Below the pieces are notes generated by a model, which saw only the letters and a list, made by a program, of their open reading frames with translations, was not told the origin of the DNA and did not search any database. From Candidatus Berkelbacteria bacterium (GTDB lineage Bacteria > Patescibacteriota > UBA1384 > XYA2-FULL-43-10 > CAINNR01): a stretch of DNA of 64,000 nucleotides. The stretch spans positions 326-64,325 of the forward strand of contig JBAXAF010000004.1 of assembly GCA_037142675.1 (NCBI GenBank), written 5' to 3'. A program made the position numbers and the translations under genes. Of the stretch, positions 2,100 to 51,664 are shown one piece after another (position 1 is the first letter of the stretch; each line of letters begins with the position of its first letter).

Positions 2100-2430
2100 C
2101 ATCCTGTGAATAACTTTTGGTTCAAATTACAACTGATTTCCTTCTCAAAACCGTCTAAATTATTGGCACTTATCCACAGCCCTGTTGATAACTTCTGGGC
2201 TTTTCCACAGGATTGTAATTTGAACCGTTTTTCATTATTGATGGTGCAGAAGTTATCCACAACATACCAGGTAATTCACAGGTTTATCCACTTTTTTATT
2301 AACAGGTTGTTCTACTAAATTACCTACTATTCTATATTGCTTATCTGGTTATCCCCATTATTCACAGCCCTTATTATTATGATTGTTAGTTATTTAAAGT
2401 TTATAACTTATAAAGATGGGCTGTGAATAA
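2100..2430. promoter_or_regulatory. Candidate oriC: DnaA-box cluster plus AT-rich unwinding stretch
   Basis: TTATCCACA or 1-mismatch boxes at 2104, 2170, 2201, 2253, 2283, 2422; AT-rich 2360-2415; lies between dnaN and dnaA. Confidence 0.7.
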
Positions 2431-3816
2431 CTATTCGAATATCATCTCTTTAAGCATTTCAACCTCATCTTTAAATTGTTTGGAATTACCCATATCCTTA
2501 TTAACAGCCTTACAACCATGCATAATTGTAGTATGATCCTTCCCTCCTAATTCACGCCCAACCTCAGGAAAGGATAATCCAACAATATTATAAAGAATAT
2601 ACATTGCAACATGACGAGGTTTAATAACTTCCTTATTTCGTTTGGATGAGACTATATCATCAATTGATATGTTGTAGAATTTTTGTATAGTTTTTAAAAC
2701 TTTTTCAGCTGAAACAACCTGTCTTTTTGTGCTGTGTGAAACCTCGCTAGAGAGCAGTTTTTCAACAACGGCCATTGATGGTTTTTCATTAATAAGATCC
2801 ATGTGGGCAAAAAGTTTATTTAGAGTTCCTTCTAATTCACGAATGCTTGAACTAATATTTTTTGCAATAAATTCCAGAATTTCATTATCAATATTCTTTT
2901 TATGTTCCTGGCACTTCATTTTAAGTATAGCCAATCTCATTTCATAGTCCGGTAATTGAATATCAGCCACCATGCCCCACTCAAAGCGGCTAATCAAGCG
3001 TTTTTCCAATCCTTTAATCTCTTTCGGTGGACGATCAGAAGTAAGAATAATTTGTTTATTTTTCTGATGGAGGTGGTTAAAGGTGTGAAAAAATTCCTCT
3101 TTAGTACCTTCTTTATTGCCCAAAAACTGCACATCATCAACAATTAAAATATCAATATTGCGATAGCGATCTTTAAATTCCTTAGCCTTGCCGCCACGGA
3201 CAGAATCAATATAGTCATTGGTAAATGTTTCACAGGAGACATAAACCACTTTGGTTTTCGGTTTTTGACTAATGGCATAGTTTCCGATTGCTTGCGCCAA
3301 GTGAGTTTTCCCCAGGCCCGGATCGCCATAAATAAAGAGGGGATTATAACTTTTTCCCGGTTTCTGCGCCGATGCTTGAGCAGCAGCATTGGCCAACTGA
3401 TTTGATGAGCCGACTATAAAATTTTCAAAAGTGTAACTGTTCTTCAGGTAGCCATTTTCTTTGTTATCCACAGGCATCTCGTAGTCAGTATTTTCACTCG
3501 AGTTATCCACAGGCCTGTGAATAACTACTGGTACGTCGGTTGGTTTTTCGGCTTTTGTGGAAGTGGACGCGACTTTAAATTTTATCTCCTCAATAGGCTC
3601 CTTGAGCTGCTTTGTTAAAGCATTTTTGATTTCCTTAACATAATGTTTTCGAAGGTAGTCTTCGATAAAAAAAGATGGCACTCCGACTGTAAAAACGCCC
3701 TTTTTGAAGTCCAAAATAAACGTGCCGGCAAACCACGTTTGAAAGTTAGCTTTAGAAATTACCACCTCTAACTCCCCAAGAGCAACTGACCAGATTTTCT
3801 GTAGATCTTTCTCCAT
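2431..3816 (-). CDS. dnaA: Chromosomal replication initiator DnaA (native, low GC)
   Basis: Walker A GDPGLGKTHLAQAIGN; C-terminal DNA-binding domain; likely start MEKDLQKIW at 3816 rather than the ORF-track start; internal DnaA boxes at 3463 and 3503/3516 coincide with repeated PVDN codons. Confidence 0.93.
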   Translation of the reverse strand: MEKDLQKIWSVALGELEVVISKANFQTWFAGTFILDFKKGVFTVGVPSFFIEDYLRKHYVKEIKNALTKQLKEPIEEIKFKVASTSTKAEKPTDVPVVIHRPVDNSSENTDYEMPVDNKENGYLKNSYTFENFIVGSSNQLANAAAQASAQKPGKSYNPLFIYGDPGLGKTHLAQAIGNYAISQKPKTKVVYVSCETFTNDYIDSVRGGKAKEFKDRYRNIDILIVDDVQFLGNKEGTKEEFFHTFNHLHQKNKQIILTSDRPPKEIKGLEKRLISRFEWGMVADIQLPDYEMRLAILKMKCQEHKKNIDNEILEFIAKNISSSIRELEGTLNKLFAHMDLINEKPSMAVVEKLLSSEVSHSTKRQVVSAEKVLKTIQKFYNISIDDIVSSKRNKEVIKPRHVAMYILYNIVGLSFPEVGRELGGKDHTTIMHGCKAVNKDMGNSKQFKDEVEMLKEMIFE

Positions 3817-4040
3817 TTCGCTCCTCAAAATTACTGTACTAAAAACATAGCAAGTTATCCACAGGGGGTGCAAGCACCCCAACTAAAAACTAATAACTAA
3901 AAACTAATAACTAAAGAATTGGAGCGACTATTTTCATTATAATAGTTGATTTTCGCATACGCTTGTGTTACACTCTTTCAGTATCGAATAGATTCGAACT
4001 CCACAACTATTCGTTATTCACTATTAGTTATTCGTTATCA

Positions 4041-19503: not shown

Positions 19504-19667
19504 TAGAAAGCACCTCTTTGGGTTGCTGGTTTTATGGGTCTGCAAGAAGGAAAATACCATTTTTTATTATTGATGTCAATGACATCCAGGGCGGTAGAAC
19601 TAATATCTGACCAATCTGATAATTTTTGTGGTAAAATAGATCTAAATATTAAGGAGGAGGAAATATT

Positions 19668-20597: not shown

Positions 20598-20690
20598 ATT
20601 CTAAACAAACCCAAATGATCAAATTTTCAAATATTTTAAACATTAAGACATTTGAGTTTTGATATTGTTTAGATATTAGAATTTAGAAAT
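20583..20690. repeat. AT-rich palindromic intergenic repeat (family member)
   Basis: Near copy of 12095-12205. Confidence 0.7.
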
Positions 20691-22416: not shown

Positions 22417-22496
22417 GAAATGTTCCAGGGCGAGAGACAGTCTGTCTTTATGACCCCTCAGAGAACATCGTGTCGTGCATAAGGAGAGTGGAGAGC

Positions 22497-23051
22497 ATGC
22501 GCTCTATCACTGCTAGCTTGATTGTTCTGATTCTCGTTGCGAGCATCGCTTTCGCGCAGGGCAAGGACGCCAGGCGCCAGCGACCGCCGAACCCACAACA
22601 GGCGTTCCAGCGGGGACAGACCTGTAACACGCCGCAACAGCGGCGCCTGCAGCCCCATCGGCAGTACGACGCTCCTCGCCGCAACGACCGCGACCACGGA
22701 CGCCGCCCGATCACATTGGGCAGCATCCTCCACGACATCTTCAGCTCGCCTGTCGTCATCGTGGACGAGCGGCCAGACTACTATCCGCAGGTTTGCCAAA
22801 CGTCGCGCGTCGCAAAGGTTGTCGATGTGGACGGCGAAAATGTGTATGTGAACGCGCCGTTTGCAGTTGGTAGCCGAGTCCTTGATGTGTCATGGGTTCT
22901 CGACCCGGTGACAGACAGGAGAATATGTCGAAAAACCGACGCGACGCTAGTTGTTGTCGCATCAGATGGCCACAGATCTTCGCTCTGTCGGGTCATAAGT
23001 ACGGAGCCATGGTGCTTCGTCGCCCCGGGAGACGAAATAGTAGTACGCTAG
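22497..23051 (+). CDS. GC-rich small secreted protein (cassette G)
   Basis: MRSITASLIVLILVASIAFAQG signal peptide; RBS aaggagag; terminator gtgtctggcaatgaaattgccagacac at 23065-23100. Confidence 0.55.
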   Translation: MRSITASLIVLILVASIAFAQGKDARRQRPPNPQQAFQRGQTCNTPQQRRLQPHRQYDAPRRNDRDHGRRPITLGSILHDIFSSPVVIVDERPDYYPQVCQTSRVAKVVDVDGENVYVNAPFAVGSRVLDVSWVLDPVTDRRICRKTDATLVVVASDGHRSSLCRVISTEPWCFVAPGDEIVVR

Positions 23052-29689: not shown

Positions 29690-29810
29690 AAATGACTAAT
29701 ATCTAATTACTAATTCCTAATAAAATGCTCAATGCTCAAATGTCTAATTTTGGAATTTGATATTTGGAATTTGTTTAGAAATTAGAAATTAGGATTTAGA
29801 AATTGATTTT
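29690..29810. repeat. AT-rich intergenic repeat (family member)
   Basis: ...ttggaatttgatatttggaatttgtttagaaattagaaattaggatttagaaatt. Confidence 0.5.
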
Positions 29811-30188: not shown

Positions 30189-30511
30189 ATAAGACCCCTC
30201 TCTATATAGAAGAATGAATTATGAATGCAGAATTGTGAATTATGGTTTACCCAACATTCATCATTCTTGATTCAGTATTCACGTTATTTTTATCCCTATA
30301 ACCATTATAATCTGCAATAATATCGCCGTCAACAACCCCCCGTCATTCCGGATCTTCCGCAGTCTTTCGAAGATGACCCCGCGGGGTGACCCTGTGGGCT
30401 CGATCCGGAATCTGACAAACAAATTTCGAATTTGCGAAAAATCAAGATCAAAAAAAGAGCGGGGCTTGTTAGCCCCGCTATGTGCGGCGTTGGACTTGCT
30501 GGTTTTTGGCA

Positions 30512-30694
30512 TCACCGGAAAATCAGGAAGGTGATGACCGCCGGCGGAAGCCAGGCCGTGATAACCATGATTACGCCGATTGTACCTGCGGTTATCCTCC
30601 ACTTACTCATCTGGTGTTTAGCTGCCCATACTAGGAGATAGCCAGCTGCCAGGAGCTGGCATACTACAAGGACCATAAAGACAAGCGGTTGCAT
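30512..30694 (-). CDS. GC-rich 60-aa two-TM membrane peptide (cassette H)
   Basis: MQPLVFMVLVVCQLLAAGYLLVWAAK...; terminator agcggggcttgttagccccgct at 30448-30480. Confidence 0.45.
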   Translation of the reverse strand: MQPLVFMVLVVCQLLAAGYLLVWAAKHQMSKWRITAGTIGVIMVITAWLPPAVITFLIFR

Positions 30695-30706
30695 GACGTT
30701 TCCCTT

Positions 30707-31543
30707 CTATTGAAGTTTGGACAGCACTTCTAACACGGCCAGTGACCCGTAACCGATCTGTTGACGTCGCCCATGGTGAAACAGCAGGCACTCTGAGGGT
30801 GGTGGGTTGTTATCGTACTCAGTCGGAAGACCTAGCAGTGCCCGCTCGAGGAGTGTCATGCCAGAGCAGTTCTGTCGGACCGTCTGCCTGAAGGCCGTGA
30901 TGACATCGGCCAGTTCCGAGCTGACATCAGTTTGGTGGTCAGTCAGCAGTCTTTCGGCGAAAAAGGCTGAGACCGAAGGGGTGTAGAAGAGGGTCGAGGT
31001 CATGAAGTCCTCTACAGAACGCAGGCTTCTGGCTACATATTCCACGGTCCTCTTGGTGGCTTCGCCTAGACCACCCAGAAGGAAGTGGAGCCTGAGAATG
31101 TTGATCGAACTGGTCGGGTCCCAGTAGCTACCCGGGTTGTAGGGTGAGTAGTCGTCCTTGACCCAAACCCCGGTGCCCTTCTCGCTCTCGGAATTGGCGA
31201 TCAGTAGGTCGCGTGTCGGTGAGAGTGAATCGACGGATATCAACCCGGCTCTCACTAGCAGCCAGATGATAAACGCTGTATCCTCCCAGTCCGGAGGATA
31301 GAACGGGTTGAAGCACCAGAGCGCTCGTCCCTCACACTCATCCGGCACCCTCCTCGAGCTGAGAAATGTCAGCGCTTCAGCTACCTGTTTCTCGTCCATG
31401 TCGGTGAGCTGCGCGAGATAGACAACGATCGCCGTTATTGCGACCGTATCGACAGTTCTCGCCTCCCCCGTCTCCTTGTTATACATCGTCGTCGGCACCT
31501 GACCCGATTTCAGCTGCCCCGACAACTTTGTAGCGCCGATTGC
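30707..31543 (-). CDS. GC-rich hypothetical protein (cassette H)
   Basis: Start MAIGATKL with RBS gggag; about 278 aa. Confidence 0.55.
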   Translation of the reverse strand, partial: AIGATKLSGQLKSGQVPTTMYNKETGEARTVDTVAITAIVVYLAQLTDMDEKQVAEALTFLSSRRVPDECEGRALWCFNPFYPPDWEDTAFIIWLLVRAGLISVDSLSPTRDLLIANSESEKGTGVWVKDDYSPYNPGSYWDPTSSINILRLHFLLGGLGEATKRTVEYVARSLRSVEDFMTSTLFYTPSVSAFFAERLLTDHQTDVSSELADVITAFRQTVRQNCSGMTLLERALLGLPTEYDNNPPPSECLLFHHGRRQQIGYGSLAVLEVLSKLQ

Positions 31544-31689
31544 CATAATTATCACTCCCGTCCAAGTTTGTCCGATTTGTCAGACAGCTAATTATAGGTG
31601 GGTTACTTGCTAATATCTATACCGATTGACAGAAATACCGAAAAGATCTAAAATTAGTCTATAAATCAGTTGTCTAAAAGGTTCGACAA

Positions 31690-32442
31690 ATGTTTGTTAA
31701 ACAGCTTGAACAATTAGGACTCAATGAAACAGAAGCCAAAACATACTTGGCGCTTTTGAAAATCGGCAGTTCCTCGGTCGGAACTTTAAGCAAAGAATCG
31801 GGCATTGCTAGGACGACTCTTTACTATTCCATTGAAGAGTTGAAGAAGAAGGGTTTTGTCTTTGAAAAGCTTATAGATCAGAAAAAGCGCTTGATCCCAC
31901 GATCGCCGGAGTTCTTGGGTAAAAAAGCTGAGAAACTAGCGCAGCAGGCTCATGAGACGGCTAAGTCGATTTCCAGTCTTATTCCAGCATTAAAAAAGCT
32001 AGCCAAGGAAGATAGCTCTTATTCGACAGTCAACCACTATGAAGGCAAAGAGAGTGTTTGGGAAGTTTTTGAGATTATTCTGCGATCAAATAAAGATAGT
32101 TTGTGGTTTGGCTTTGGTCAGAGTTTTCTTGAGAATTATGATTTTGATTATTTTGTAACCAATTTCAGTAAAAAACGCCGACAGTTTGGACGCACAAAAT
32201 CCTTTAACATAATCCCGCCATTCAAAAGTGCAGCAAAAATAGCCACAAGGGGAGAAACCGATTTTCAAGAATTTCGGTTCTTGGGTAAAGATCAGAACTT
32301 TAATGCTGGTATTTGTATATTTGGAAATAAAATAGCAATTTTTTCATATGACAATGTTTTGTCGGCGACTTTAATTCAAGGCGACGCAATCGCAGAAATA
32401 GCTAGCACTATGTTTAAAATGATATGGAAATCTCTGAGCTAA
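31690..32442 (+). CDS. TrmB-family HTH regulator (paralog 3)
   Basis: LGLNETEAKTYLALLKIGSSSVGTLSKESGIARTTLYYSIEEL; promoter TTGACA-17-TAAAAT at 31625-31653. Confidence 0.8.
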   Translation: MFVKQLEQLGLNETEAKTYLALLKIGSSSVGTLSKESGIARTTLYYSIEELKKKGFVFEKLIDQKKRLIPRSPEFLGKKAEKLAQQAHETAKSISSLIPALKKLAKEDSSYSTVNHYEGKESVWEVFEIILRSNKDSLWFGFGQSFLENYDFDYFVTNFSKKRRQFGRTKSFNIIPPFKSAAKIATRGETDFQEFRFLGKDQNFNAGICIFGNKIAIFSYDNVLSATLIQGDAIAEIASTMFKMIWKSLS

Positions 32443-32454
32443 AGTATAAAAAAA

Positions 32455-32487
32455 CCAGCTTGGCAACTGCGCCAAGCTGGAACGGCT
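32455..32487. repeat. Hairpin direct repeat, copy A (also the terminator of cassette I)
   Basis: ccagcttggcaactgcgccaagctggaacggct. Confidence 0.7.
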
Positions 32488-32493
32488 AAAGTT

Positions 32494-33270
32494 TCACTGT
32501 TCGTCGACCCACCGTGCGATGCTCTCGAGCATTTGCCGCTCTGTCGGGTTATCAGCGTTGGGTAGCTTGGTGATGAGTGGTCGCTTGACTTCGACGTAGT
32601 GAAACGCCTTGGTTTCGGGTGGTTTCAGCGGTTTCCATCTCGTGGAGTGGATTTGAAGATCGAGCTTTTTTCTGGCCGACAATCCTCTCTTGTAATTAGG
32701 GCTAACCACCATACATTTTGTCTCGTTTAATACCCTGCAGCGAGAGTAGAAGTGGTTGGCAACTTCTATTGCAGACTTTCGAACGCACCAAACAACGTTG
32801 TCTTGTGGGTCTAACGCGTCAAGTACTGCTGTACCTAACCACGTGCTTCCAGAAGGAGCGTCCAACAGAACGTGATCAGCGCCAAGTTTTTTCAGGCGTG
32901 CTAGGATATCTCTAACTGAAAAGGCAAATTCCAAGTACCCGACGATCGTTTCTTGGATATTTGACCGCCACCGTTCGGCTGGGTCCTCGCTGACTGGTAC
33001 AACATATGCGCCATGATAAGCAGCGAGTTGCTTGAATGAGAGTCGTTTCACAGTGTCGTTGCTATTGAATCTTCTCATGTCTATCAGCTGGTTTGATGTA
33101 ACCGTCACGCTATCAACCAACGACAACATCTCCAGCATGTATGACCCATCAAAGTCCAAATCCACCAGGCATGTCTTTCGCCCCGCCTTGGCAAGCTCTA
33201 CCGCTAAAGCGATACTGAGCGTGGTTTTGCCCGTCCCACCAACTTGAGACACGATCGCTGTCGTTTTCAT
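32494..33270 (-). CDS. ParA/MinD-family P-loop ATPase (GC-rich, cassette I)
   Basis: AIVSQVGGTGKTTLSIALAVELAKAGRKTCLVDLD deviant Walker A. Confidence 0.7.
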   Translation of the reverse strand: MKTTAIVSQVGGTGKTTLSIALAVELAKAGRKTCLVDLDFDGSYMLEMLSLVDSVTVTSNQLIDMRRFNSNDTVKRLSFKQLAAYHGAYVVPVSEDPAERWRSNIQETIVGYLEFAFSVRDILARLKKLGADHVLLDAPSGSTWLGTAVLDALDPQDNVVWCVRKSAIEVANHFYSRCRVLNETKCMVVSPNYKRGLSARKKLDLQIHSTRWKPLKPPETKAFHYVEVKRPLITKLPNADNPTERQMLESIARWVDEQ

Positions 33271-33297
33271 ATTCCTAACCTCTTCCTTCTCGCTGTT

Positions 33298-33330
33298 TCC
33301 GGCTTGGCGTAACTGCCAAGCCGGAACGGT
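33298..33330. repeat. Hairpin direct repeat, copy B
   Basis: ccggcttggcgtaactgccaagccggaacggtt; about 80% identical to copy A. Confidence 0.7.
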
Positions 33331-34137
33331 TCAATCGTCCATGAGCTGGTTAAGCTTGTCTAGAGCCTCTAGTGTTAAGGAATCATCGATATTCCCCGAA
33401 TAGCAGCCGTAAGTGAGTTGCAGGGTGTCGAAAGCCTCTAATGGAGTCATGGCTTGCCTGATTCTAGCTCGAATGAGCTCCAATAGTCTGGGCTTGATTA
33501 ATGCTGTGCCTGGTTCCATGGAGTGAAAACGAACTTCGTACAACAGTGCGTCAAGGTTAGAGCACTGATGAGCACGATCCTTGGCCCCAGCCATCCACGG
33601 CTGCACACGGTTGTAAACGTTGATGACTTCCTTGGTGGTTCGACATTCGGAGAGAAGTCCATACCTTTCGAGCTGATCGGCGCCAGGTGAATTCTCAAAG
33701 ACTTCCTTAGCCTCAGCGACACTTCGTGAGTTCTTCAGTGCTTGCGTCGAAATCAAATGCCACTTGGCCCACGCTAGATCTGCGGCGGCTCTGTCATGTA
33801 CTTGTTTTGCCGCGTTGAATACCTTTCTGATTGCAGCCGTTTCAGAAAGTGCAATCCATTTTTCCAGAGCTAGATGGCGTAGCTTCTCGGGGCTGGCCCA
33901 AAAAGCTACCTCGGCCTCACTAGGACTTTGGGCCATCTTGATGGCTTTTGTAGTTAGTTTAGCCCATTTGGTATTGAACCTCCTCCTCGTTGGACTGTCC
34001 GTGTGGTGATACTGATACGTCATGCGGTCAAACTCTTTAGCGTCGGTGGCGTTATTGATAAACCATTTGATATATCTGTCTATCACCTCTTGCTCTCGAC
34101 GCTCCAGATCCACAGCCATATTCTTTTTTTGTTTCAT
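33331..34137 (-). CDS. GC-rich hypothetical protein (cassette I)
   Basis: 268 aa; RBS aagggcgaggag. Confidence 0.55.
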   Translation of the reverse strand: MKQKKNMAVDLERREQEVIDRYIKWFINNATDAKEFDRMTYQYHHTDSPTRRRFNTKWAKLTTKAIKMAQSPSEAEVAFWASPEKLRHLALEKWIALSETAAIRKVFNAAKQVHDRAAADLAWAKWHLISTQALKNSRSVAEAKEVFENSPGADQLERYGLLSECRTTKEVINVYNRVQPWMAGAKDRAHQCSNLDALLYEVRFHSMEPGTALIKPRLLELIRARIRQAMTPLEAFDTLQLTYGCYSGNIDDSLTLEALDKLNQLMDD

Positions 34138-34314
34138 TCTCCTCGCCCTTACAAATTGTTTATCTGAAACTACTTATTATTGCACTTGTAGGGGATCCAA
34201 CAATAACCTGGTTGGATATTTCACAAAAAATAATTTTAGCGCTTGCATTTCGATCTCAAAGATTATACAATTGTGTTAACTAATATCGTTAACAGACAAA
34301 TCTAGTCAGAGGGT

Positions 34315-35094
34315 TTGAAAAAAGGAAAAGGAATGCCAAAGATAAATTTAGAACAATTTGGGATGAGCAGTGAGGAAGCCAAGGTATATTTGGCTCTAGT
34401 AAAGCGTGGGTCGTCGGGAGTAATGGATATCTCCCATGAATCAAATCTTAGTCGCTCAACCACCTATTATCATTTGGAAGCCCTGCTTTCCAAAGGACTG
34501 GTTTCACAATCGTTTAATGGCAAGAAGCACATTTACACACCATCAAAGCCAAAGGTTTTAGAACGAATCTTAGAACAAAAGGAACTGGAACTTGCGGATC
34601 AAAAACAAAGTTTACCCAGCTTGCTAAAACGGATTGAAAACATTGCCGCCCAACAGGCGACGGATCCGGAAGCACAAATATTAAAGGGTAAAATTGGTCT
34701 TTTACAGATTCTTGACAGTGTTCTTGGTGCTTCGGGTGACATTTACTTCATTGGCTCGCATGATGTTGTTCTCAAAAACGAGAGCTTGTTTTCAACAGAA
34801 TTTTTTCTTCGTAATTTTACAGCCAAACGCCGGCAAAAAGGAAAAAGTGTTGCCTGGATCATTGGCGATGAAAGTGAAATTACTTTGCGCCAGAAGCGCG
34901 AACAAGATACGGAGTTTCGGAAAATTAAAGTTTGGTCAGAACTTGCGAACATGAATGGCGGTTTAATTGTCTATGGCTCAAAGGTGTTGTTTTACAGTGT
35001 TTCAGGAGAAGCTACAGCTTATATCATCCACAATCCAGTAACTTCCGAGATCTTAAAAGTTATGTTTAAAATGATATGGAGTTCATTGGAATAA
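34315..35094 (+). CDS. TrmB-family HTH regulator (paralog 4)
   Basis: FGMSSEEAKVYLALVKRGSSGVMDISHESNLSRSTTYYHLEAL. Confidence 0.8.
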   Translation: MKKGKGMPKINLEQFGMSSEEAKVYLALVKRGSSGVMDISHESNLSRSTTYYHLEALLSKGLVSQSFNGKKHIYTPSKPKVLERILEQKELELADQKQSLPSLLKRIENIAAQQATDPEAQILKGKIGLLQILDSVLGASGDIYFIGSHDVVLKNESLFSTEFFLRNFTAKRRQKGKSVAWIIGDESEITLRQKREQDTEFRKIKVWSELANMNGGLIVYGSKVLFYSVSGEATAYIIHNPVTSEILKVMFKMIWSSLE

Positions 35095-35789
35095 AAAATC
35101 AAATTATTTCAGTTGGGTATTTTTTCCTCGATCTTATTTTCCCCAAAAAATGTGTTAATTGTGGGGAATTTGGTAGTTTTTGTTGTCAGAAATGTTTGGA
35201 GAAAATTAAGTCGATCGAAACTCAAGTTTGTCCGAAGTGTGGGAAAATATCGGACAGGGGAAAATGGTGTGCTAGCTGTAAAGGAAAGTCCAATCTTTCC
35301 GGCATCATTGTCGGTGCGCAATATCGAACCGGACCGACTAAGGAACTGATTCATCACCTGAAATACAATTTCATTCTTGACCTGTCGCCTATTTTGGCTG
35401 ATTTGCTGATAGACCAGCTCATTGACATCGACCTTCGCGGTGACATTATTGTCACATCTGTCCCGCTTCACCGCCGGCGACAAAACGAAAGGGGATTCAA
35501 TCAGGCCGAAGTCTTGGCCAAAATTGTGGCGAAAAAAGTTGGTTACAATTATTTGCCACTGCTCAAAAGAAAAATCCACAAAAAAACTCAAGTTGAGCTT
35601 TCTGGTGTGCAAAGAAGAGAGAACTTGGCGGGGATTTTTGATCCTGCTGATGTGAAAAATATAGTCGGAAAAACCATTATATTGATCGACGATGTCTCGA
35701 CCACCGGCACAACTTTGGAAGAATGTGCAAAGGTTTTGAGGGAAAATGGCGCCAAGCAAGTTTGGGGTTTGGTGGCGGCAAGGGGATAA
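35076..35789 (+). CDS. comF: ComF-family competence protein (phosphoribosyltransferase fold)
   Basis: N-terminal CxxC x2 zinc ribbon; C-terminal PRTase motif IILIDDVSTTGTT. Confidence 0.8.
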   Translation: MEFIGIKNQIISVGYFFLDLIFPKKCVNCGEFGSFCCQKCLEKIKSIETQVCPKCGKISDRGKWCASCKGKSNLSGIIVGAQYRTGPTKELIHHLKYNFILDLSPILADLLIDQLIDIDLRGDIIVTSVPLHRRRQNERGFNQAEVLAKIVAKKVGYNYLPLLKRKIHKKTQVELSGVQRRENLAGIFDPADVKNIVGKTIILIDDVSTTGTTLEECAKVLRENGAKQVWGLVAARG

Positions 35790-35882
35790 TAGTGAAATCA
35801 ATTTCTAATATCTAACTCCTAATTTCTAAACAAATACCAAATGTGAAATAAAAAATCTGCAAACGAGTTGTAGATTTTTTTT

Positions 35883-35972
35883 TGGCGGAGAGGGCGAGAT
35901 TCGAACTCGCGAGACCCTTGCAGGCCTTCCAGTTTTCAAGACTGGTGCACTCAACCACTATGCGACCTCTCC
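35883..35972 (-). tRNA. tRNA-Ser (anticodon TGA)
   Basis: Reverse complement ggagaggtcgcatagtggttgagtgcacc...cttgaaa loop...gagttcgaatctcgccctctccgcca; long variable arm. Confidence 0.8.
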
Positions 35973-36326
35973 AAAAAAATTATCTATTAAGTCAGTTGCT
36001 TTTGGGGTAATTGATCTTCTGCTGTGGAGACACTTTTTTACTAAATATTCTTGTTCGTTAGAATTTAAAACATACAACCAGTCATAAGCATTAATTTTAG
36101 TTTTTTTAACGATATAGCCAGTTGAATTAGAATGAATTCGTCGAAGGTCTACTTCCCCGCTACCAGAAAATCTAACCTGGATTCTTTTTAATATTCCATC
36201 TTTTTCAACAATTAGGTCGTAAGCTGCAGATTCGGTTAGCGGAATTGAAACATCGAAGCCTAATTTTGTCAGGCTCGCTATTGCTTTTGCTACTGCGTAA
36301 TCACCTTTTCTTTGGGTGTTTCTCAT
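35958..36326 (-). CDS. PD-(D/E)xK-fold nuclease-like small protein
   Basis: Start MRNTQRKGDYAVAKAIASLTKLGFDVSIPLTESAAYDLIVEKDGILKRIQVR has an Hjc/restriction-endonuclease-like D...E.K pattern; the ORF-track N-terminus overlaps the tRNA and was trimmed. Confidence 0.5.
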   Translation of the reverse strand: MRNTQRKGDYAVAKAIASLTKLGFDVSIPLTESAAYDLIVEKDGILKRIQVRFSGSGEVDLRRIHSNSTGYIVKKTKINAYDWLYVLNSNEQEYLVKKCLHSRRSITPKATDLIDNFFGEVA

Positions 36327-36373
36327 ACCAATATTATATCCGGTATGGGCAACAGTTTCAATTAAATGATTTC

Positions 36374-36466
36374 TGGCGGAAGGTGAGGGATTCGAACCCT
36401 CGTGGCGGCTTTTAGACCACCGACGGTTTAGCAAACCGTTCCCTTAAGCCACTCGGGCAACCTTCC
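36374..36466 (-). tRNA. tRNA-Ser (anticodon GCT)
   Basis: Reverse complement ggaaggttgcccgagtggcttaagggaacggtttgctaaaccgt...gagggttcgaatccctcaccttccgcca. Confidence 0.75.
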
Positions 36467-36597
36467 ACAGTTTCTAACCGATTCTAGCATTTTCAAAGTC
36501 GAATGACAACCGCTTGACAGCATCTCTTAGCGTCTGTTACGTTCATGGGGCCGAAAGGCGTACCTATCAAACGCTCTTGAAAGGAGCGAATACAATC

Positions 36598-37995
36598 ATG
36601 TCGGATACTCTTCTGTCTGCGGACGAGATCTGGGCTGCAGCGTTGCCGCTCCTTACCGAGCGGATTAGGCTCACGTCGATTGTCACTATGTTACGCAATG
36701 CTGAGGTTATCAGCTACGATGGCACGACGTTTGTGCTTGCTGTGAATGGTGACTTTTCCAGGGGGTTGCTTGTGGACGGTTTGCATCTTCCGACGATTAC
36801 CACCTGCTTGGAGCAAGTCGCCAAACAGCCAGTTCAACTTCAGGTTGAGGCGTCAGCTAATGCTGTGCCTTTGGCTGCTGTTGGATGTGCTGCAGAGCAA
36901 GTGCGACAGGAAAGTTTGCCCGTGGCTCAGCCACTGAATACCAGGTCGTCGCATGAGCAGCTTGAGACTATGCCGCTCAACGACCGTCATACCTTCGACA
37001 ACTTTGTTATGGCTGACTGCAATCGTTTTGCATTCAGCGCTGCCCAACAGGTTTGCCGAAACCCCGGGCGCAGCTACAATCCACTGCTCATCCACAGTAA
37101 GTCGGGTTTGGGCAAGACCCACCTGATGCAAGCGATCGGGCACGAGATACGCTCCCAGCACAGTGACATGGAAGTCGTCTACGTGTCCGCCGAGAACTTC
37201 GTCAACCAGATCATCTCTGCTATCCGCGACAATCGCACCGCCGAGTTCAGGCGGCGCTACCGCTACGTGGATGTCTGGCTGGTGGACGACATCCAGTTCA
37301 TCGCCGCCCTTGATGGCCCGGCGTCCGAAGAGGAGTTCTTCCACACCCTCAACACACTGTGTATCAACGACAAGCAAGTCGTCATCGCGTCGGATGTGCC
37401 GCCTCGTCAGTTGCAGATCGTGAATGTCCGTCTACGGAGCCGCCTCGAGATGGGAATTTTGGCCGACTTGCGTGCTCCGGATCTCGAAACTCGCATCGCC
37501 ATTCTCGAGAAAATGGCTGAGGCGGAGAAGACTCATATTCCTCGTGAAGTTTTGGAGTATTTGGCCAAGAAGGTAGAGAACAATATCCGAGTTCTTGGTG
37601 GGGCACTGCTGCAGTTAGTCGCCTATGCATCGTTGCATGGTAAACTAACTCTGGCGCTGGCCGGAGAAGCTCTGGAGAGCTACTCCACCAGCAAAGATGG
37701 GCGGCAGTTCAGTCTGGCCGAGATTGTTACCTACATCGCTGAACGATTCACCCAGAAGGCAAGTGATATCACTGGCCCAAAACGGAGCAAGGAGCTCGCC
37801 TGGCCACGGCAAGTAGCGATTTACCTCTGTCGGGAGCTGACCGACTACTCGCTGAGTGATATCGGTCACTTCTTCAACGACCGAGACCACTCAACCATCA
37901 ACTATAATTATGGAGTGGTACGCGACAGGATAGGAGAGGACGAGCAAACCCTCTGGCTGATGAACGACATGAAGGCACAACTGCGCGGTAGCTAG
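36598..37995 (+). CDS. Second, GC-rich DnaA-family replication initiator paralog (cassette J)
   Basis: Start MSDTLL (RBS aaaggagcg); AAA+ SKSGLGKTHLMQAIGHE; C-terminal HTH ...RQVAIYLCRELTDYSLSDIGHFFNDRDHSTINY...; terminator ccgccctgtgtatccgggcgg plus T-run at 38008-38040. Confidence 0.8.
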   Translation: MSDTLLSADEIWAAALPLLTERIRLTSIVTMLRNAEVISYDGTTFVLAVNGDFSRGLLVDGLHLPTITTCLEQVAKQPVQLQVEASANAVPLAAVGCAAEQVRQESLPVAQPLNTRSSHEQLETMPLNDRHTFDNFVMADCNRFAFSAAQQVCRNPGRSYNPLLIHSKSGLGKTHLMQAIGHEIRSQHSDMEVVYVSAENFVNQIISAIRDNRTAEFRRRYRYVDVWLVDDIQFIAALDGPASEEEFFHTLNTLCINDKQVVIASDVPPRQLQIVNVRLRSRLEMGILADLRAPDLETRIAILEKMAEAEKTHIPREVLEYLAKKVENNIRVLGGALLQLVAYASLHGKLTLALAGEALESYSTSKDGRQFSLAEIVTYIAERFTQKASDITGPKRSKELAWPRQVAIYLCRELTDYSLSDIGHFFNDRDHSTINYNYGVVRDRIGEDEQTLWLMNDMKAQLRGS

Positions 37996-38230
37996 CCGCG
38001 CATCGAGTTCCGCCGCCCTGTGTATCCGGGCGGTTTTTTCTTTGGCAGCTGGACGAATCGAAAGAAAATTGCTACTATTTATTCAGTGACATGTTTTTTG
38101 CTACAAGTAATTGATCGGCCCTCCTGCGCTCATGTTCGTCTCGTGGTTTTCATCCACGCTGCCGAAACTTTGCTTCGGAAGGGCGCGACAAAATACTATT
38201 AGAAGTAATTATTGAAGTCGCGGAGGGAAT

Positions 38231-38749
38231 ATGGCAGAAAAAGATATTGAAAAGAAGCCTGCGGTGAAGCCTGAGATTTTATCAACGGACAAACCAATTT
38301 TCTATTGGCAGGCAATTGAATTCGAAAGTCATGAAAAGCCAAATAATTGGCTTTTATACATCATTCTAATCGCTATTGCTTTGACCGCATTGATGATTTA
38401 TCTGAAAATGTGGCTTGGAGCAGCCGTCGTCGTTGCCGCTTGTTTTGCTCTTTACAGCCAGTCAGCTTCACGTGGCAAAAAACGGAGTTATGCTGTTTAC
38501 AACCAGGGAATAACTGTTGATAACAAGGTTTATACCTTTGATCAATTCAAATCCTTCTGGATCTTCACTTACCAAGAAAGGGCGATTATCCGTTTCGAGC
38601 AACTGAAGCGCTTCGCGATACCAATCGAAATGCCAATTGGTGAAGAAAATCCGGAACAAGTTCGGTTGTTTCTTACCAAGCATTTGCCAGAAATAGAAGG
38701 TCGCGGCGAAGATGTGACTGACACTATTAACAGATGGATTAAATTTTGA
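38231..38749 (+). CDS. Hypothetical membrane protein (native)
   Basis: 172 aa, two TM helices. Confidence 0.55.
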   Translation: MAEKDIEKKPAVKPEILSTDKPIFYWQAIEFESHEKPNNWLLYIILIAIALTALMIYLKMWLGAAVVVAACFALYSQSASRGKKRSYAVYNQGITVDNKVYTFDQFKSFWIFTYQERAIIRFEQLKRFAIPIEMPIGEENPEQVRLFLTKHLPEIEGRGEDVTDTINRWIKF

Positions 38750-38880
38750 CAGAGTCAAAATAAAACTCTAAATTCTAATTTCTAAACTCTAAACAAATTT
38801 GAAATTCAAATTTCTCAATGTTTTAAACATTTGATCATTTGAGATTTAGACATTGTTTGAGACTTAGTACTTATAATTTA
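38750..38880. repeat. AT-rich intergenic repeat (family member)
   Basis: ...ttctcaatgttttaaacatttgatcatttgagatttagacattgtttgag... Confidence 0.5.
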
Positions 38881-40920: not shown

Positions 40921-40988
40921 AGCGCAATTTCTAATTTCTAGACTCTAATTTCTAATAAATATCTAATGTCAAAATGTCTAATTAGCGC

Positions 40989-42128: not shown

Positions 42129-42240
42129 ATTCTAGACAAATCCAAATGACCAAAAATCAAAAATTCAAAAATTTTTTGAGCATTAAAACATTTGTATTTT
42201 GGAATTTTTTAGAGTTTAGATATTAGAATTTAGAGCTTGG
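42120..42240. repeat. AT-rich intergenic repeat (family member)
   Basis: cctaaaccctaaattctagacaaatccaaatgacc...ttagagtttagatattagaatttagag. Confidence 0.5.
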
Positions 42241-42367
42241 AGTGGTCATGTTTGAGCACAATGGAAAAAAGTGGGTAAAAATTGTTTTTATAGTTTTGTT
42301 AGTTTTAATGCTGGTCTTCACCATTCTGCCATTTTTGGGTAGCCTAAAATGATACAATAGTAATGTT

Positions 42368-42854: not shown

Positions 42855-45800
42855 CTAGGTTATATTTTCGTTTCCGACTATCTCTTTTAATTTTCTCTTA
42901 ACTACTGGGCTTAAGTCAAGGCGGTTTTTTATTTTGATCTCTTCCCAGCCCTCACCATTTTTCGGTACTTTCATAATTACCGGGCTAGTTCCAGGGTGAG
43001 TTGCAATTACAGTTTTTATGTCCTTTAAAATGTGCGGTGCTGAGCCACGAGGTATGGTAATTTGCAGTGGTTCAGGTTTGGTATCAATTGGTGCTGCTGG
43101 CGCTTTTGCTGCTGGCGCTGGTTGATTATATCCTCCGGAATATCCACCGCCATTACCGCCTCCTCCACCGCCCCAACTATTTAATTTCTTCTTTCCCCTG
43201 GGCACGAAATCGGGGATTTTATCATCGCCAACAGGAAAAATTTCTTCGGCTAGTATTTTTAGTTCGCCATCTTTGTTGCTAATGTAGCCATCGACAACAA
43301 CAACCCTGTCCGGTGTGAAAATTGTCGGCGTGGCAGCGAAAATTTTCGGAAAAACCAGAACTTCAATGTTTTTTGTTTGATCTTCGACTTTAATAAAAGC
43401 CATTTTCTGACTATGTTTTTTGGTGATTATTTCCTGAACATTCATAATAATTCCAGCAACTCGGACAAATTGATTGTCCATTTCAGCTGAAATCTCGATC
43501 ATTTTCTTCTGTTGATGAGGTTCAATTAAGGGCGCAATTTCAGACAATGGATGCTCGGAAACGTACATCCCTAAAAGCTCGCGCTCCCAGGCCAATCGTT
43601 GTTTCTTCTCGGCTGGCTGTGTGGCCTCGAATTCAATTTTGGCAGTTGCAATTACGTCTTCACTGAAAAGTGATGACTGATTGGTGTCTCGATTCTTTTT
43701 GGCGCCAGCAGCGAATGCCAGCATTCGTTCCATGTTGAATATCAGCTCGTTGCGCTCAGCTAAATCATCTAAGGCTCCAGCCATCGCTAGTGCCTCTAGG
43801 GATTTTTTGTTAATCACTTTTGATCCGAGCCGCAACAGAACATCGGCAACGTCTTTGAATTTGCCATTATTTTTTCGATCCTCAACAATTTCTTCTGCCA
43901 CCGCAGACCCGACATGTTTTATGGCCGAGAGCCCAAACCTGACATTACCGGTTTCTTTCACCACACCGAAGTCGACAAATGATTCGTTAATCGACGGTGG
44001 AAGCACGGCAATTCCCATTCGTTTACACTCCTCAATTTCCATTGCCAATTTATCCAAATCATCTTTGTTTGAGGTCATAAGTGCCGACATATACTCTGGC
44101 GGAAAGTTGGATTTCAGATAGGCTGTTTGATAGGCGACCAAAGCATAGCTAGCAGCGTGAGCTTTGTTAAAACCGTAACCGGCAAATGTTTCTATTTGAG
44201 TCCAAAGTTCGTTGGTTGTGGCCTCGCTCATACCTCGCTCAATAATTTGGCGGAAAAATTTATCTTTTTGCGCTGACATTTCTTTAATGATTTTTTTGCC
44301 GATTGCTTTACGGAATTTATCAACCTCTTCCCAGTTGTAGCCGGCGAGTTCAATAGCAATCATTAAAACATCGTCTTGATAAACAATTAGCCCCAGCGAC
44401 TGCTTTAAAACCGCTTCTAGTCGTGGGTCGGAGTATTTGATTCTTGATGGATTGTGTTTCCTGGCAACATATTCGGGAATAAAGGCCATTGGCCCTGGGC
44501 GGTAGAGCGCCACCATGGCCATAATGTCGAGAATGGTTGTCGGCCGAAGTTCCTTAATGTTTTTGCGCATGCCTTCTGATTCGAGTTGGAAAACACCAAT
44601 TGTTTCGCCGCGCGAGAGCATTTCGTAAGTTTTTTTGTCATCAAGCGGGATTTCGTCCAATATTATTTGAACGCCTTGAGTTTTGGCGATGATCTTTATA
44701 ACATTTTGAATAATTGACAGGTTCGCTAAGCCCAAGAAGTCCATTTTAATTAAGCCAATACCGTCCTCACCCACGGCGTGCATTTCGTATTGAGTAATTA
44801 GACGGTCGCCCTTAGCATCCATCATAACCGGCGTATAGTTCGTAATCTCTTCCGGGGCAATAACAACACCGGCAGCGTGGACAGATGCATGTCTAACGAC
44901 GCCCTCGAGCCTTCTGGCAATATCAATGCACTGTTTAACCCTTGGGTCAGAGTCGTATAAATTTCGTAGTTCGGCCACTTCTTTTAGCGCTTTATCTAAA
45001 GTGGTTTTTAGCGGCGGAATTAATTTGGCAATGATATCAACCTCGGAGTAACTCATGCCGAGTACGCGGCCGACGTCGCGGACGGCCATTCTGGCTGCCA
45101 TAGTTCCAAAGGTAATAATTTGTGCCACGTGGTCGCTGCCGTATTTGTTGGAAACATAGCGAATAATTTCGTCCCGCCCAGCGTCAGCAATATCAGCGTC
45201 AATATCAGGCGCAGATGGACGAAATGGATTTAAAAATCGTTCAAAAGGTAAGTTATAATCAAAAGGATTTAATTGTTTGCCGGTAATTCCTAGTGCGTAG
45301 GAGATGAAGCAGCCGGCTGCTGAGCCCCTGGTATTGGTTGGGATTCCTTGTTGCTTGGCAAAGTGAAAGAAGTCTTGAACAATTAAAAAGTAGCCTAAAT
45401 ACCCCTTGTCCTTAATTACTTTGAATTCATAATCAATACGTTCGCGGATTCGCGGAGTAATTTCTGAAACTATTTTTGGCAATCTTTCATCAATAAGTTT
45501 GCGTAAGTATGTTTCGTATGTTTCACCAGCCGGCAGCGGAAACTCTGGGAACCTAAATTTACCGAGCTCAATTTGCACGTCGCATTTATTCATGACCTCA
45601 ATTGTATTGGTTAGCACTTCTGGGTGGTCGGGGAAGTTGCTCGACATTTGGGCGTGAGTTAGGAGAGAATAGTCATCGCCTGCCATTGTCATTCTGTTGG
45701 TGTCGCCGACTAACTTACCAGTTTGCAAACAAATCAGCGCGTCGTGAGCAATGTTGTCATCTGAATTAACGTAGTGCGGATCGTTTGTGGCAATAACTTT

Positions 45801-46421
45801 TAATCCAAATTCTTCGGCCAGCTTAAAAATATTGTTGTTGGCAATTTTTTGTTCCGGCACAGTGTTTGGGTGATGTTGAACTTCAAGATAAAAATCCTCT
45901 TTGGGGAAAATTTCCAAATATTCTTTTAGCGCTTTTCTGCCCTCCTCAATATTTTCCAATGATTTTCGCGGGATTTCTCCCTGGACGCAAGCGGAGCAAG
46001 CAATTAAACCCTCAGAGTGCTCTTTGAGTAGTTTTTTGTCGATGCGCGGTTTGTAATAATAGCCATCCAAGTGGGCGAGTGATGTTAGTTTCATTAAGTT
46101 TCGGTAGCCGGCTTCATTTTTAGCTAATAAAATCAAGTGATAAGTAGAGGAGTCAACCCTTGGTTGCTTGTCTTTCATTGTCCTGGGCGCAACGTAGGTT
46201 TCAATACCTAGAATAGGCTTAATTCCTTGCTTGGTGCACTCCTCATAAAACTCAACAATGCCGTGCATCACGCCGTGGTCAGTTAAAGCTAATGCCGGCT
46301 GCCCATCATTTTTAGCCTTTGCTACCAAATCAGGAATCTTGCCCATGCCGTCTAGCATAGAATAATGTGAGTGAACGTGGAGATGCACAAAGTCTTTAGT
46401 TTTTGGTTTGTCGTCAGGCAT
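42855..46421 (-). CDS. dnaE: DNA polymerase III alpha subunit
   Basis: 1188 aa; PHP domain HLHVHSHYSMLDG; polymerase core. Confidence 0.93.
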   Translation of the reverse strand: MPDDKPKTKDFVHLHVHSHYSMLDGMGKIPDLVAKAKNDGQPALALTDHGVMHGIVEFYEECTKQGIKPILGIETYVAPRTMKDKQPRVDSSTYHLILLAKNEAGYRNLMKLTSLAHLDGYYYKPRIDKKLLKEHSEGLIACSACVQGEIPRKSLENIEEGRKALKEYLEIFPKEDFYLEVQHHPNTVPEQKIANNNIFKLAEEFGLKVIATNDPHYVNSDDNIAHDALICLQTGKLVGDTNRMTMAGDDYSLLTHAQMSSNFPDHPEVLTNTIEVMNKCDVQIELGKFRFPEFPLPAGETYETYLRKLIDERLPKIVSEITPRIRERIDYEFKVIKDKGYLGYFLIVQDFFHFAKQQGIPTNTRGSAAGCFISYALGITGKQLNPFDYNLPFERFLNPFRPSAPDIDADIADAGRDEIIRYVSNKYGSDHVAQIITFGTMAARMAVRDVGRVLGMSYSEVDIIAKLIPPLKTTLDKALKEVAELRNLYDSDPRVKQCIDIARRLEGVVRHASVHAAGVVIAPEEITNYTPVMMDAKGDRLITQYEMHAVGEDGIGLIKMDFLGLANLSIIQNVIKIIAKTQGVQIILDEIPLDDKKTYEMLSRGETIGVFQLESEGMRKNIKELRPTTILDIMAMVALYRPGPMAFIPEYVARKHNPSRIKYSDPRLEAVLKQSLGLIVYQDDVLMIAIELAGYNWEEVDKFRKAIGKKIIKEMSAQKDKFFRQIIERGMSEATTNELWTQIETFAGYGFNKAHAASYALVAYQTAYLKSNFPPEYMSALMTSNKDDLDKLAMEIEECKRMGIAVLPPSINESFVDFGVVKETGNVRFGLSAIKHVGSAVAEEIVEDRKNNGKFKDVADVLLRLGSKVINKKSLEALAMAGALDDLAERNELIFNMERMLAFAAGAKKNRDTNQSSLFSEDVIATAKIEFEATQPAEKKQRLAWERELLGMYVSEHPLSEIAPLIEPHQQKKMIEISAEMDNQFVRVAGIIMNVQEIITKKHSQKMAFIKVEDQTKNIEVLVFPKIFAATPTIFTPDRVVVVDGYISNKDGELKILAEEIFPVGDDKIPDFVPRGKKKLNSWGGGGGGNGGGYSGGYNQPAPAAKAPAAPIDTKPEPLQITIPRGSAPHILKDIKTVIATHPGTSPVIMKVPKNGEGWEEIKIKNRLDLSPVVKRKLKEIVGNENIT

Positions 46422-50959: not shown

Positions 50960-51556
50960 CTATTGGCCACCGAGGCCAGTTAGGTTATAAGAAAATCCAA
51001 TTGAGACTTGTGGGTCGTTGGTAAATAGCTTGATCTCGAGGTGTCTACCAACTTTGCGAACGACTCCAACACCAAAGTTGTGCTCCTTGGCGCTCCACAG
51101 GCCACGGAGTTGGATTTTCGTCCCTTTGACCGATAGTTCCCAGCGCTCTATCTCCAGCGTAGGTGACATTTCGGCCTTCACCATTAAAGGCTGGTAATAA
51201 CGGACAGAATTCCTACTTGTTAGGTAGTGAACCTGAAAGTAGATTTCCTGGTCCCCGGCCAGAAACACGGTCGGCCCTGGCTTCTGCACCACTCTCAGTC
51301 CAAGTAGAAACGGCTTGTGCAGACAGGACATTCCCGCCCCGATCACCCTGAAACTCATTACAGCTTCGTCCGTTTTGCCGCCCCCATCCCTTGTCAGCCG
51401 CAAGCTCATTGTTGTCGTATAAAGCGTAGACGATACGATGTTCTTGCTAGCCTCAAGGCTAATGACAATGGGAAGACTTGGCCAATCTTCTTTTTTTTCC
51501 TCTGCCCAAAGTGGTAGGCAGAAGAAAAATGCGACTATAATCATCGCGATTTTCAT
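50960..51556 (-). CDS. GC-rich secreted protein (cassette L)
   Basis: Start MKIAMIIVAFFFCLPLWA signal peptide; minus promoter TTCACA-16-TATAAT; terminator ccgaccaagcgagggcgaggtcgg at 50927-50950. Confidence 0.55.
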   Translation of the reverse strand: MKIAMIIVAFFFCLPLWAEEKKEDWPSLPIVISLEASKNIVSSTLYTTTMSLRLTRDGGGKTDEAVMSFRVIGAGMSCLHKPFLLGLRVVQKPGPTVFLAGDQEIYFQVHYLTSRNSVRYYQPLMVKAEMSPTLEIERWELSVKGTKIQLRGLWSAKEHNFGVGVVRKVGRHLEIKLFTNDPQVSIGFSYNLTGLGGQ

Positions 51557-51664
51557 TTTGCCCACATCCTTTGGTATGCGCAGATGGTTCCGCGGCAATT
51601 ATAGCACTTAAATTTGAATTGTGAACCAAGAATTATGGATGATGGGATAATTAGTTACGTTGTA

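Follow-up and report, generated by a model that had tools for sequence, protein, structure and literature searches.

A foreign, long-retained and fast-evolving second DnaA in a conserved locus of a Berkelbacteria subclade

The 64-kb contig of Candidatus Berkelbacteria (Candidate Phyla Radiation, CPR/Patescibacteria) analysed here (hereafter the window) encodes, besides its native replication initiator (DnaA1), a complete second DnaA (DnaA2, 36598..37995, + strand, 465 aa), which is foreign, long retained and fast evolving, and which we consider to be the finding of interest in this stretch of DNA. We lean towards the view that DnaA2 is a chromosomal dnaA captured from Armatimonadia, kept in a conserved slot and likely to act as an auxiliary DnaA. 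Our comparisons involve four lineages (the window, L009/L100 (ELA704), L098/L102 and L004), all of which carry a GC-rich DnaA2 at the same locus. The initial annotation of this DNA had interpreted the gene, together with a ParA-like ATPase cassette, as the remnants of an integrated replicon or as an alternative initiator; of these two proposals it is the latter that survives, since DnaA2 is both foreign and complete and may therefore still be read as an alternative or auxiliary initiator.

The four-domain architecture of DnaA2 (assessed by Pfam, NCBIfam and alignment to PDB 8btg) is evident from full-length alignments, in which its residues 10-463 are matched to the complete B. subtilis DnaA (8btg) and its residues 10-450 to DnaA1 (33% identity). 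The protein scores 420.4 bits against the DnaA equivalog model TIGR00362 (cut-off 343.9) over residues 12-460, and is recognized by the Pfam models Bac_DnaA (4e-60) and Bac_DnaA_C (6e-23); DnaA_N has no Pfam match in the window protein, but is matched in close relatives. The catalytic motifs of the AAA+ domain (GLGKTHL, LVDDIQF, ASD, RLRSRLE and NIRVLGGAL) are present, the sensor-II Arg is kept (with one E->G change within the sensor-II helix), and domain IV conserves the motifs KRS..AWPRQ and RDHST, together with two changes (L->N and K->V) that are specific to the window lineage. With a GC content of 0.55 and a GC content at third codon positions (GC3) of 0.65, as compared to a GC3 of about 0.37 in native genes, DnaA2 is clearly GC-rich, and the earlier description of a complete, GC-rich DnaA with no dnaN next to it was confirmed.

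The native copy, DnaA1 (2431..3882, - strand, 483 aa, GC3 0.36, TIGR00362 509 bits), adjoins dnaN (891-1997, - strand, by Pfam), and the spacer between the two genes holds an oriC-like cluster of nine DnaA boxes (2105..2430). Across the window we counted 31 DnaA boxes (15 expected), with 9 of the 31 falling inside this 326-bp dnaA1-dnaN spacer. The distance between DnaA1 and DnaA2 amounts to 32.7 kb, in agreement with the initial annotation, which had placed a low-GC native dnaA at oriC some 33 kb away. By comparison, DnaA2 is associated with neither an oriC nor an adjoining dnaN, and the interval 36000-38500 contains no cluster of DnaA boxes and only one intragenic near-match to TTATCCACA (at most one mismatch), so that the box array suggested for 36500-38200 was not found. 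A second origin at DnaA2 is unlikely.

Searches among 5.8e9 proteins (including those of the same lake metagenomes) recovered, as the closest relatives of the window DnaA2 after itself, DnaAs at 61-70% identity, encoded on contigs of 60-69% GC. Wherever the locus of these relatives could be read it comprises Lactamase_B_2, a box-bearing spacer of ~0.9 kb and dnaA, and on two long contigs dnaN and recF follow downstream; as they are accompanied by an oriC spacer, dnaN and recF, these relatives are primary chromosomal initiators. In a scan of 185,579 species-representative genomes, from which the best 80 loci were kept, the closest loci belonged to two Patescibacteria (the only Patescibacteria among the 80), followed by Armatimonadia, Armatimonadota and 'Zipacnadia'. 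Furthermore, a neighbour-joining (NJ) tree nested DnaA2 inside the Armatimonadia clade, far from DnaA1, and the L004 copy is 87.5% identical to the Armatimonadia DnaA P0006. By these sequence comparisons DnaA2 is a xenolog of foreign origin, with a donor ancestry that is carried by its coding sequence only. The checks that had been proposed for it (phylogeny, codon usage and intactness) all agree, as the gene branches with Armatimonadia, uses non-host codons and is not truncated. Moreover, DnaA2 and the whole donor clade share S, S and Y at what we take to be the counterparts of E. coli P423, T435 and H439. The origins of the clade sharing these residues carry TTTTCCACA boxes; the boxes in donor origins read TT(T/C)TCCACA, and nine boxes of this kind are available in the Berkelbacteria oriC (2105-2430).

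The position of DnaA2, surrounded by housekeeping genes, is the same in all four lineages, in the order tRNA-Ser(tga), tRNA-Ser(gct), DnaA2, a transmembrane protein of ~172 aa, tRNA-Arg, M16 peptidase and NDK. The upstream boundary of the locus is formed in the window by tRNA-Ser(tga) (35883..35972, - strand), with tRNA-Ser(gct) (36374..36466, - strand, 100% identical to the L102 copy) lying directly upstream of the DnaA2 promoter (both genes had been correctly recognized in the initial annotation), and the downstream boundary by a native 172-aa membrane protein (38231..38749, + strand), which is found at the same place in L009 (98%), L102 (72%) and L004 (65%). An expression slot (36514..36597, + strand), aligned across the window, L009, L098 and L004, consists of a promoter (-35 TTGACA at 36514-36519 and extended -10 TGtTACGTT at 36535-36543, the latter reading TGnTACGTT among the lineages) and a leader with the elements GCC-GAAA-GGC and a stem CGCTC..GAGCG that includes the Shine-Dalgarno AAAGGAG (36580-36586) preceding the ATG start; past the stop codon follows an intrinsic terminator (38012..38041, + strand, CCGCCC..GGGCGG and then T6). 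Promoter, leader and terminator align in all four lineages, and the upstream slot is 98%, 81% and 62% identical to that of the window at the nucleotide level (in L009, L098 and L004, respectively). None of the three resembles the flanking DNA of the donors. The leader matches no Rfam family, occurs a single time within the window and was retrieved by a metagenome-wide search at the DnaA2 loci of these lineages only. Taken together, these alignments indicate that the slot is conserved and that DnaA2 is not a recent insertion.

The coding sequence inside this slot has evolved in a different fashion. Protein identity to the window DnaA2 is 90% in L009, 65-67% in L004 and 40-44% in L098, as compared to 72-96% for the native flanking proteins of L098/L102; between the window and L098 the leader keeps 81% DNA identity, and the DnaA2 coding sequence only 50%. 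Between the window and L009 the rate of nonsynonymous change (dN) is seven-fold above that of the neighbouring gene, and the rate of synonymous change (dS) is about one third of it (0.23 vs 0.69). For the whole gene the ratio of the two (dN/dS) is 0.21 in this comparison; by domain it amounts to 0.39 (domain I), 0.08 (AAA+) and 0.28 (domain IV). AAA+ values span 0.04-0.08, and the ratios show purifying selection on DnaA2, with a strongly constrained AAA+ core. The catalytic and DNA-binding motifs are retained in all DnaA2 copies, save for the first Arg of RLRSR in L098. That the gene is a functionless passenger drifting towards a pseudogene, as might be thought from the faster substitution at otherwise invariant positions, the relaxed domains I and IV and the absence of dnaN and a box array beside it, appears to us very improbable indeed: its open reading frames (ORFs) have stayed open at 457-465 aa in four lineages in spite of a synonymous divergence that is saturated in native genes (also between L004 and the window), and a neutral 1.4-kb ORF would not outlast such saturation. 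The low dN/dS of the AAA+ domain and the conservation of promoter, Shine-Dalgarno-containing leader and terminator speak against a passenger as well. Dead genes are, moreover, rarely kept in reduced CPR genomes.

The reading that we prefer is that an ancestor of a small Berkelbacteria subclade captured the coding sequence of an Armatimonadia chromosomal dnaA, which would have come to reside in a Berkelbacteria-specific slot with a sigma-70-type promoter, a leader of ~50 nt with its Shine-Dalgarno in a stem, and an intrinsic terminator. The gene would have been retained as an open reading frame for a protein predicted to be competent for ATP hydrolysis and for DnaA-box binding, the domains I, II and IV of which evolve fast, its partner-binding domains being possibly adapting or relaxed. 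Such a protein may act as an ATP-dependent, DnaA-box-binding oligomeriser on the TTATCCACA-type boxes of the cell itself (those of oriC, of promoters or of both), and may modulate initiation or transcription alongside DnaA1 instead of firing a second origin. The apparently intact ATPase and box-binding modules, the lack of an adjacent origin, dnaN or box array and the presence of boxes at the native oriC together point to an auxiliary DnaA as the most likely role.

Several observations weigh against the capture and auxiliary role just described. The history of the gene is unsettled, as the monophyly of the Berkelbacteria DnaA2 copies received only 10% support in the NJ tree and their shared derived residues are few; signature residues and NJ bootstrap gave no decision between one and several acquisitions. 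At 147 columns that are near-invariant in the donor clade, the window and L009 deviate 12-14 times (the window 12 times, clade members at most 7), the deviations including the above-mentioned E->G of the sensor-II helix as well as L->N and K->V in domain IV. Of 363 columns conserved in the clade, 183 differ in the L098 copy, and Ala replaces the first Arg of the clade's RLRSR motif there, which implies that classical initiator function may have been lost in some lineages. Furthermore, the GC3 of DnaA2 stays at 0.65, 0.66 and 0.81, where simple amelioration would predict at most 0.45, and the auxiliary role, most likely though we hold it to be, is read from the retained motifs only.

The anomaly in GC3 and dS may mean either that synonymous change is suppressed or GC-biased in this class of genes, or that alleles are repeatedly replaced, and tree and signature-residue tests gave no decision between the two. 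A recurrent replacement, in which the slot is old and the coding sequence was overwritten more than once, either by fresh Armatimonadia dnaA (e.g. from the physical host of these episymbionts) or by Berkelbacteria alleles entering through the conserved flanks, is possible, although we judge it unlikely. It would fit the proximity of the L004 copy to P0006, its deviation at just 1 of the 147 near-invariant columns and its GC3 of 0.81, as well as its dS to donors of about 0.9-1.0 in contrast to the saturation reached between native genes of L004 and those of the window; the NJ tree, in which P0008 groups with P0006 and, in 61% of replicates, the window copy with P0002/P0003, the threefold lower dS of DnaA2 relative to its neighbour, and the leader being better kept than the coding sequence between the window and L098 are in line with it too. 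Nevertheless, among the 5.8e9 proteins there is no donor closer than 70% for the window DnaA2 and none above 44% for the very divergent L098 copy, homologous exchange requires a DNA similarity that the diverged copies lack, and eight derived residues (H->F among them) are common to the window and L098 copies. Moreover, a second syntenic GC-rich ORFan (22470-23051) displays the same hyper-divergent yet GC-rich pattern without any known donor, and thus points to an evolutionary regime acting in situ.

Such a regime is also what a further and quite unlikely interpretation builds upon, namely that the subclade keeps, within an AT-rich genome, a class of persistently GC-rich, syntenic and hyper-divergent genes, and that DnaA2, the member with the best annotation, is a host-derived Armatimonadia initiator that was retooled. 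It would then be a fast-evolving regulator, or a module for interactions in the relationship between episymbiont and host. If true, this interpretation would name the unknown host lineage of these Berkelbacteria and reveal an unusual evolutionary regime, which could be GC-biased conversion or allele exchange via conserved flanks, halting amelioration.

We consider it extremely improbable that the ParA-like cassette and DnaA2 both remain from a single plasmid, chromid or phage-plasmid which had integrated next to tRNA-Ser, as the initial annotation had proposed. Both modules are indeed GC-rich relative to native genes, and tRNA-Ser is a real hotspot: upstream of the tRNA-Ser pair in L009 (692-5818, the same as in L100) lies a region with a large serine recombinase, Replic_Relax, an AbiEii toxin and Fic, and this integrative element, abutting tRNA-Ser(tga) in ELA704, marks the site as a hotspot of integration. 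In the window, the two tRNA-Ser genes are separated by an inserted endonuclease gene (PD-(D/E)XK, homing-endonuclease-like; 35958..36326, - strand; PDDEXK_5, Pfam 6e-18; PADLOC HEase 3e-8; GC3 0.27). It is limited to the window lineage (no match in L098 or L100), the pair being spaced by 13-16 nt in L004 and L009, and appears from these comparisons to be a free-standing mobile endonuclease. Against a shared replicon stands the fact that the relatives of DnaA2 are chromosomal dnaA genes beside dnaN; that a tblastn of DnaA2 against plasmids gives only ordinary dnaA at no more than 40% identity, and viral scans of it were negative; that the ATPase of the cassette has no plasmid match; that the cassette is absent from the other DnaA2-bearing lineages (L102, L004 and the L009/L100 contig); and that a native ComF separates the two modules. 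Neither ParB nor iterons, a box array, an integrase or an att repeat were found, the absence of integrases and recombinases applying to the Pfam scan of the ORFs at 30.7-36.4 kb and to the source gene calls of the surrounding 21 kb. With the relatives chromosomal, the slot conserved, the cassette unlinked and the replicon features missing, we find no link between the two modules and no support for an integrated replicon, a reading that is largely refuted.

Candidate repeats at this site were likewise rejected. A 15-nt match (32027 vs 35948), considered as an att duplication at tRNA-Ser, is at chance level, and a 48-nt pair (35795/38758), considered as a direct repeat, belongs to a genome-wide (TCTAAnn)n motif, so that the att duplication expected near tRNA-Ser comes down to chance-level or genome-wide-motif repeats. 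The motif in question is a tandem heptad, (TCTAAnn)3-4, located in intergenic regions directly past gene ends, with 32 matches in comparison to 4.6 expected (e.g. at 768-786, 12086-12201, 20593-20687, 29695-29800, 35804-35829, 38767-38792, 40930-40973 and 42209-42241). As for the tRNA-Ser pair itself (window 35881-36467; L102 9551-9881), its orientation in L098/L102 is opposite to that in the window, L009 and L004, and the DnaA2 promoter beside the inverted pair is still conserved.

The ParA-like cassette is best described as an independent two-gene operon that would belong to a TrmB-associated variable island and encode a divergent NTPase of the MinD/ParA superfamily. Its two ORFs exist as initially annotated: a 268-aa helical-repeat orphan (hyp268, 33331..34137, - strand), which is the first gene of the operon, and a 258-aa ParA-like orphan P-loop NTPase (32494..33270, - strand; MinD/ParA superfamily by family scans and PDB sequence search). 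The latter passes the Pfam cut-offs of CbiA, ParA and AAA_31 (in line with the original naming of it as ParA-like), only over its N-terminal 80-140 residues, and fails all the curated ParA_partition/MinD/KGGVGR/BcsQ models (41.6 vs 180, 39.6 vs 90 and 28.3 vs 212.9). Its Walker A reads SQVGGTGKTT, and the position of the signature lysine (KGGxxGK[ST]) is taken by V here and by V and C in the two other members of the family; in the absence of this lysine the motif is not the deviant Walker A that had been assigned to it. Only two homologues were found among the 5.8e9 proteins. The predicted structural model is of low confidence (pLDDT 57, pTM 0.60), and Foldseek ranked MinD, BcsQ, FleN and Soj on top of its matches with a probability of 1.0 and TM-scores of only 0.34-0.49. 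No match was found on plasmids, and the viral scans of the NTPase gave no real match (generic P-loop at most). For hyp268, Pfam, PHROGs, NCBIfam and PADLOC yielded no match, and no helix-turn-helix (HTH) or ParB domain; it has weak repeat-like matches only (among 1.8e9 representatives), and its viral scan was negative.

Both hairpins that had been reported around the NTPase gene are present, though they do not simply bracket it, each of them standing directly 3' of a stop codon (that of hyp268 and that of the NTPase), and their identity of about 80% holds only with loops shifted, being about 72% without gaps. They are the only matches to GCTTGGC-N6-GCCAAGC in 64 kb (0.03 expected), and both fold well, with -19.5 and -25.2 kcal/mol (z of -3.0 and -3.8). 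Hairpin A with its T7 tail (32448..32487, - strand) faces the 3' end of the convergent TrmB1 and is an intrinsic terminator of the ParA-like gene, having an 11-bp stem and then TTTTTTT directly past the stop. Hairpin B (33298..33330, - strand) occupies the intercistronic gap, where it forms a stem-loop past the stop codon of hyp268 and ahead of the ParA-like leader AAACAGCGAGAAGGAAGAGGTTAGGAATATG; lacking a T-run, it does not qualify as a terminator. The homologue in L093 has a homologous terminator hairpin downstream and a stem of the hairpin-B type plus leader upstream; among the four hairpins of the window and L093, 95% of cells pair, with compensatory changes in 4 of 10 pairs. No known RNA family of the Rfam type was matched. 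From this covariation and folding, the hairpins are real structural elements, which are most simply seen as acting at the RNA level, and not as evidence of a centromere.

This bears on the proposal of a genuine partition ATPase, for which the two flanking palindromes (10-bp arms) would be centromere-like binding sites, and which we regard as very unlikely. The MinD/ParA-superfamily fold, the conservation of the palindromes in a second genome with compensatory changes and the occurrence of the gene in three low-GC genomes, each time as a travelling GC-rich islet, may all be cited in its favour. It is contradicted by the loss of the signature Lys in all three family members, by scores far under the ParA, MinD and KGGVGR cut-offs, by the lack of a ParB-like partner (the upstream gene encodes a helical-repeat protein here and a pentapeptide-repeat one in L093), by one of the palindromes being a textbook terminator with a T7 tail, and by its chromosomal location in two genomes, adjacent to TrmB regulators. 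No centromere or iteron repeats were found at about 32450-34300, where the initial annotation had advised looking for them, and no ParB either. We advise against annotating the ParA-like gene as encoding a partition protein.

The cassette resides in a variable island of 4.9 kb (30189..35075) between native HSP20 and ComF, together with a GC-rich hyp282 (30707-31555) and two TrmB genes (TrmB1, 31690-32442, + strand; TrmB2, 34315-35094, + strand). The island is absent in L102 (the nearest relative with the region on record), where about 80 nt separate HSP20 from ComF; the corresponding position in L004 is occupied by HTH_17 and Fic, and in L096 the homologue of the NTPase also lies between TrmB genes. 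The TrmB-family regulators, which are native low-GC genes encoding about 250 aa, are repeatedly interleaved with GC-rich cargo (window: 6119-6907, - strand; 9235-10065, - strand; and the two above; L102: 15941-18331; L096: 505-3589), and the resulting modules are found at differing intergenic positions (e.g. NDK-GT4 in L102 and L004, not in the window), so that they look like variable islands. Within the divergent promoter region of hyp268 and TrmB2 (34138-34314), an inverted repeat TGTTAAC-N7-GTTAACA (about 34276-34296) could plausibly serve as an operator for the adjacent TrmB regulator. A defence system was considered for this region and rejected, as PADLOC returned only winged-HTH-level matches (to TrmB proteins) and a homing-endonuclease match (to the PDDEXK ORF).

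In its overall composition the window is a GC mosaic, in which native genes have a GC3 of 0.33-0.46 and about 20 of the 58 long ORFs one of 0.52-0.80. A misassembly or chimera behind this mosaic was rejected, because the gene order of the window is found also in independent assemblies (an ENA contig of 67.7 kb, a JGI contig of 9.3 kb and a Logan contig) and the same junctions recur in these three sources and in related genomes. The GC-rich islets (4699-6074, 7081-9190, 10176-11625, 15424-19560, 22470-23051, 30707-31555, 32494-34137, 50960-51598, 52369-52881, 59226-59747 and 62686-63180) are mostly made of ORFans without Pfam match, the exceptions being a major facilitator superfamily transporter and an enoyl-ACP-reductase-like short-chain dehydrogenase/reductase, and their syntenic copies stay GC-rich across synonymously saturated lineages. 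Among further GC-rich cargo in L102 (14187-15778) is a protein of 185 aa (GC3 0.62) that bears the C-terminal domain of the RNA polymerase alpha subunit, and is thus a second GC-rich homologue of the core informational machinery in the clade. Finally, DnaE (42855-46421, - strand) is a single ORF of 1188 aa in the window (1204 aa in L004, 1189 aa in L102), and its split into products of 458 and 730 aa in the ENA call of the same contig is probably a gene-calling difference.

The gene dnaA is treated as a single-copy and vertically inherited marker of the origin. That a complete copy crossed phyla into a reduced CPR genome, and was long kept there beside the native one, clearly departs from the resistance to transfer that informational genes show as a rule. 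In Patescibacteria, dnaA has been used as origin marker in order to infer type IV secretion genes near the origin (PMC12102498). Origin calling, as well as marker-gene or contamination checks, could be misled in these metagenome-assembled genomes. Moreover, the combination of an unameliorated GC3 and a conserved leader around a racing coding sequence means that the equation of GC-rich genes with recent horizontal gene transfer fails here, and the identity of the donor (Armatimonadia) offers a testable clue as to which organisms may serve Berkelbacteria as host or partner.

In comparison to known systems, the NTPase of the cassette resembles Soj, MinD, BcsQ and FleN (SIMIBI) in its N-terminal P-loop, DxD switch region and hhhhD Walker B; unlike the ParA/MinD ATPases, it lacks the signature lysine, stays below every family cut-off, has no ParB, MinE or MinC partner, and has a family-specific C-terminal motif (RPLITxLPNADNP) within a family of three known members. 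DnaA2 shares with the primary DnaA of Armatimonadia (TIGR00362/PF00308 + PF08299) the full four-domain architecture, the Walker A (GLGKTH), the Walker B (DDIQF), the arginine finger (RLRSR), the sensor-II Arg and the domain IV motifs (AWPRQ and RDHST), but it is not placed beside dnaN, recF or an origin, occurs in a different phylum together with a native DnaA to which it is 33% identical, has a promoter and leader that are not donor-derived, and evolves several-fold faster than its neighbours. Two chromosomal dnaA paralogs are known from other bacteria, an example being DnaA1 and DnaA2 of Chlamydia, where a small genome likewise holds two full-length DnaA genes with only one of them beside dnaN; whereas these are old in-lineage duplicates, the second copy of Berkelbacteria is a cross-phylum xenolog limited to a narrow subclade. 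Similarly to Hda, DnaA2 would be an auxiliary ATPase of the DnaA family that could modulate the main initiator; it matches the Hda models weakly and below cut-off, and unlike Hda, a short protein consisting of just domain III, it has retained domains I, II and IV.

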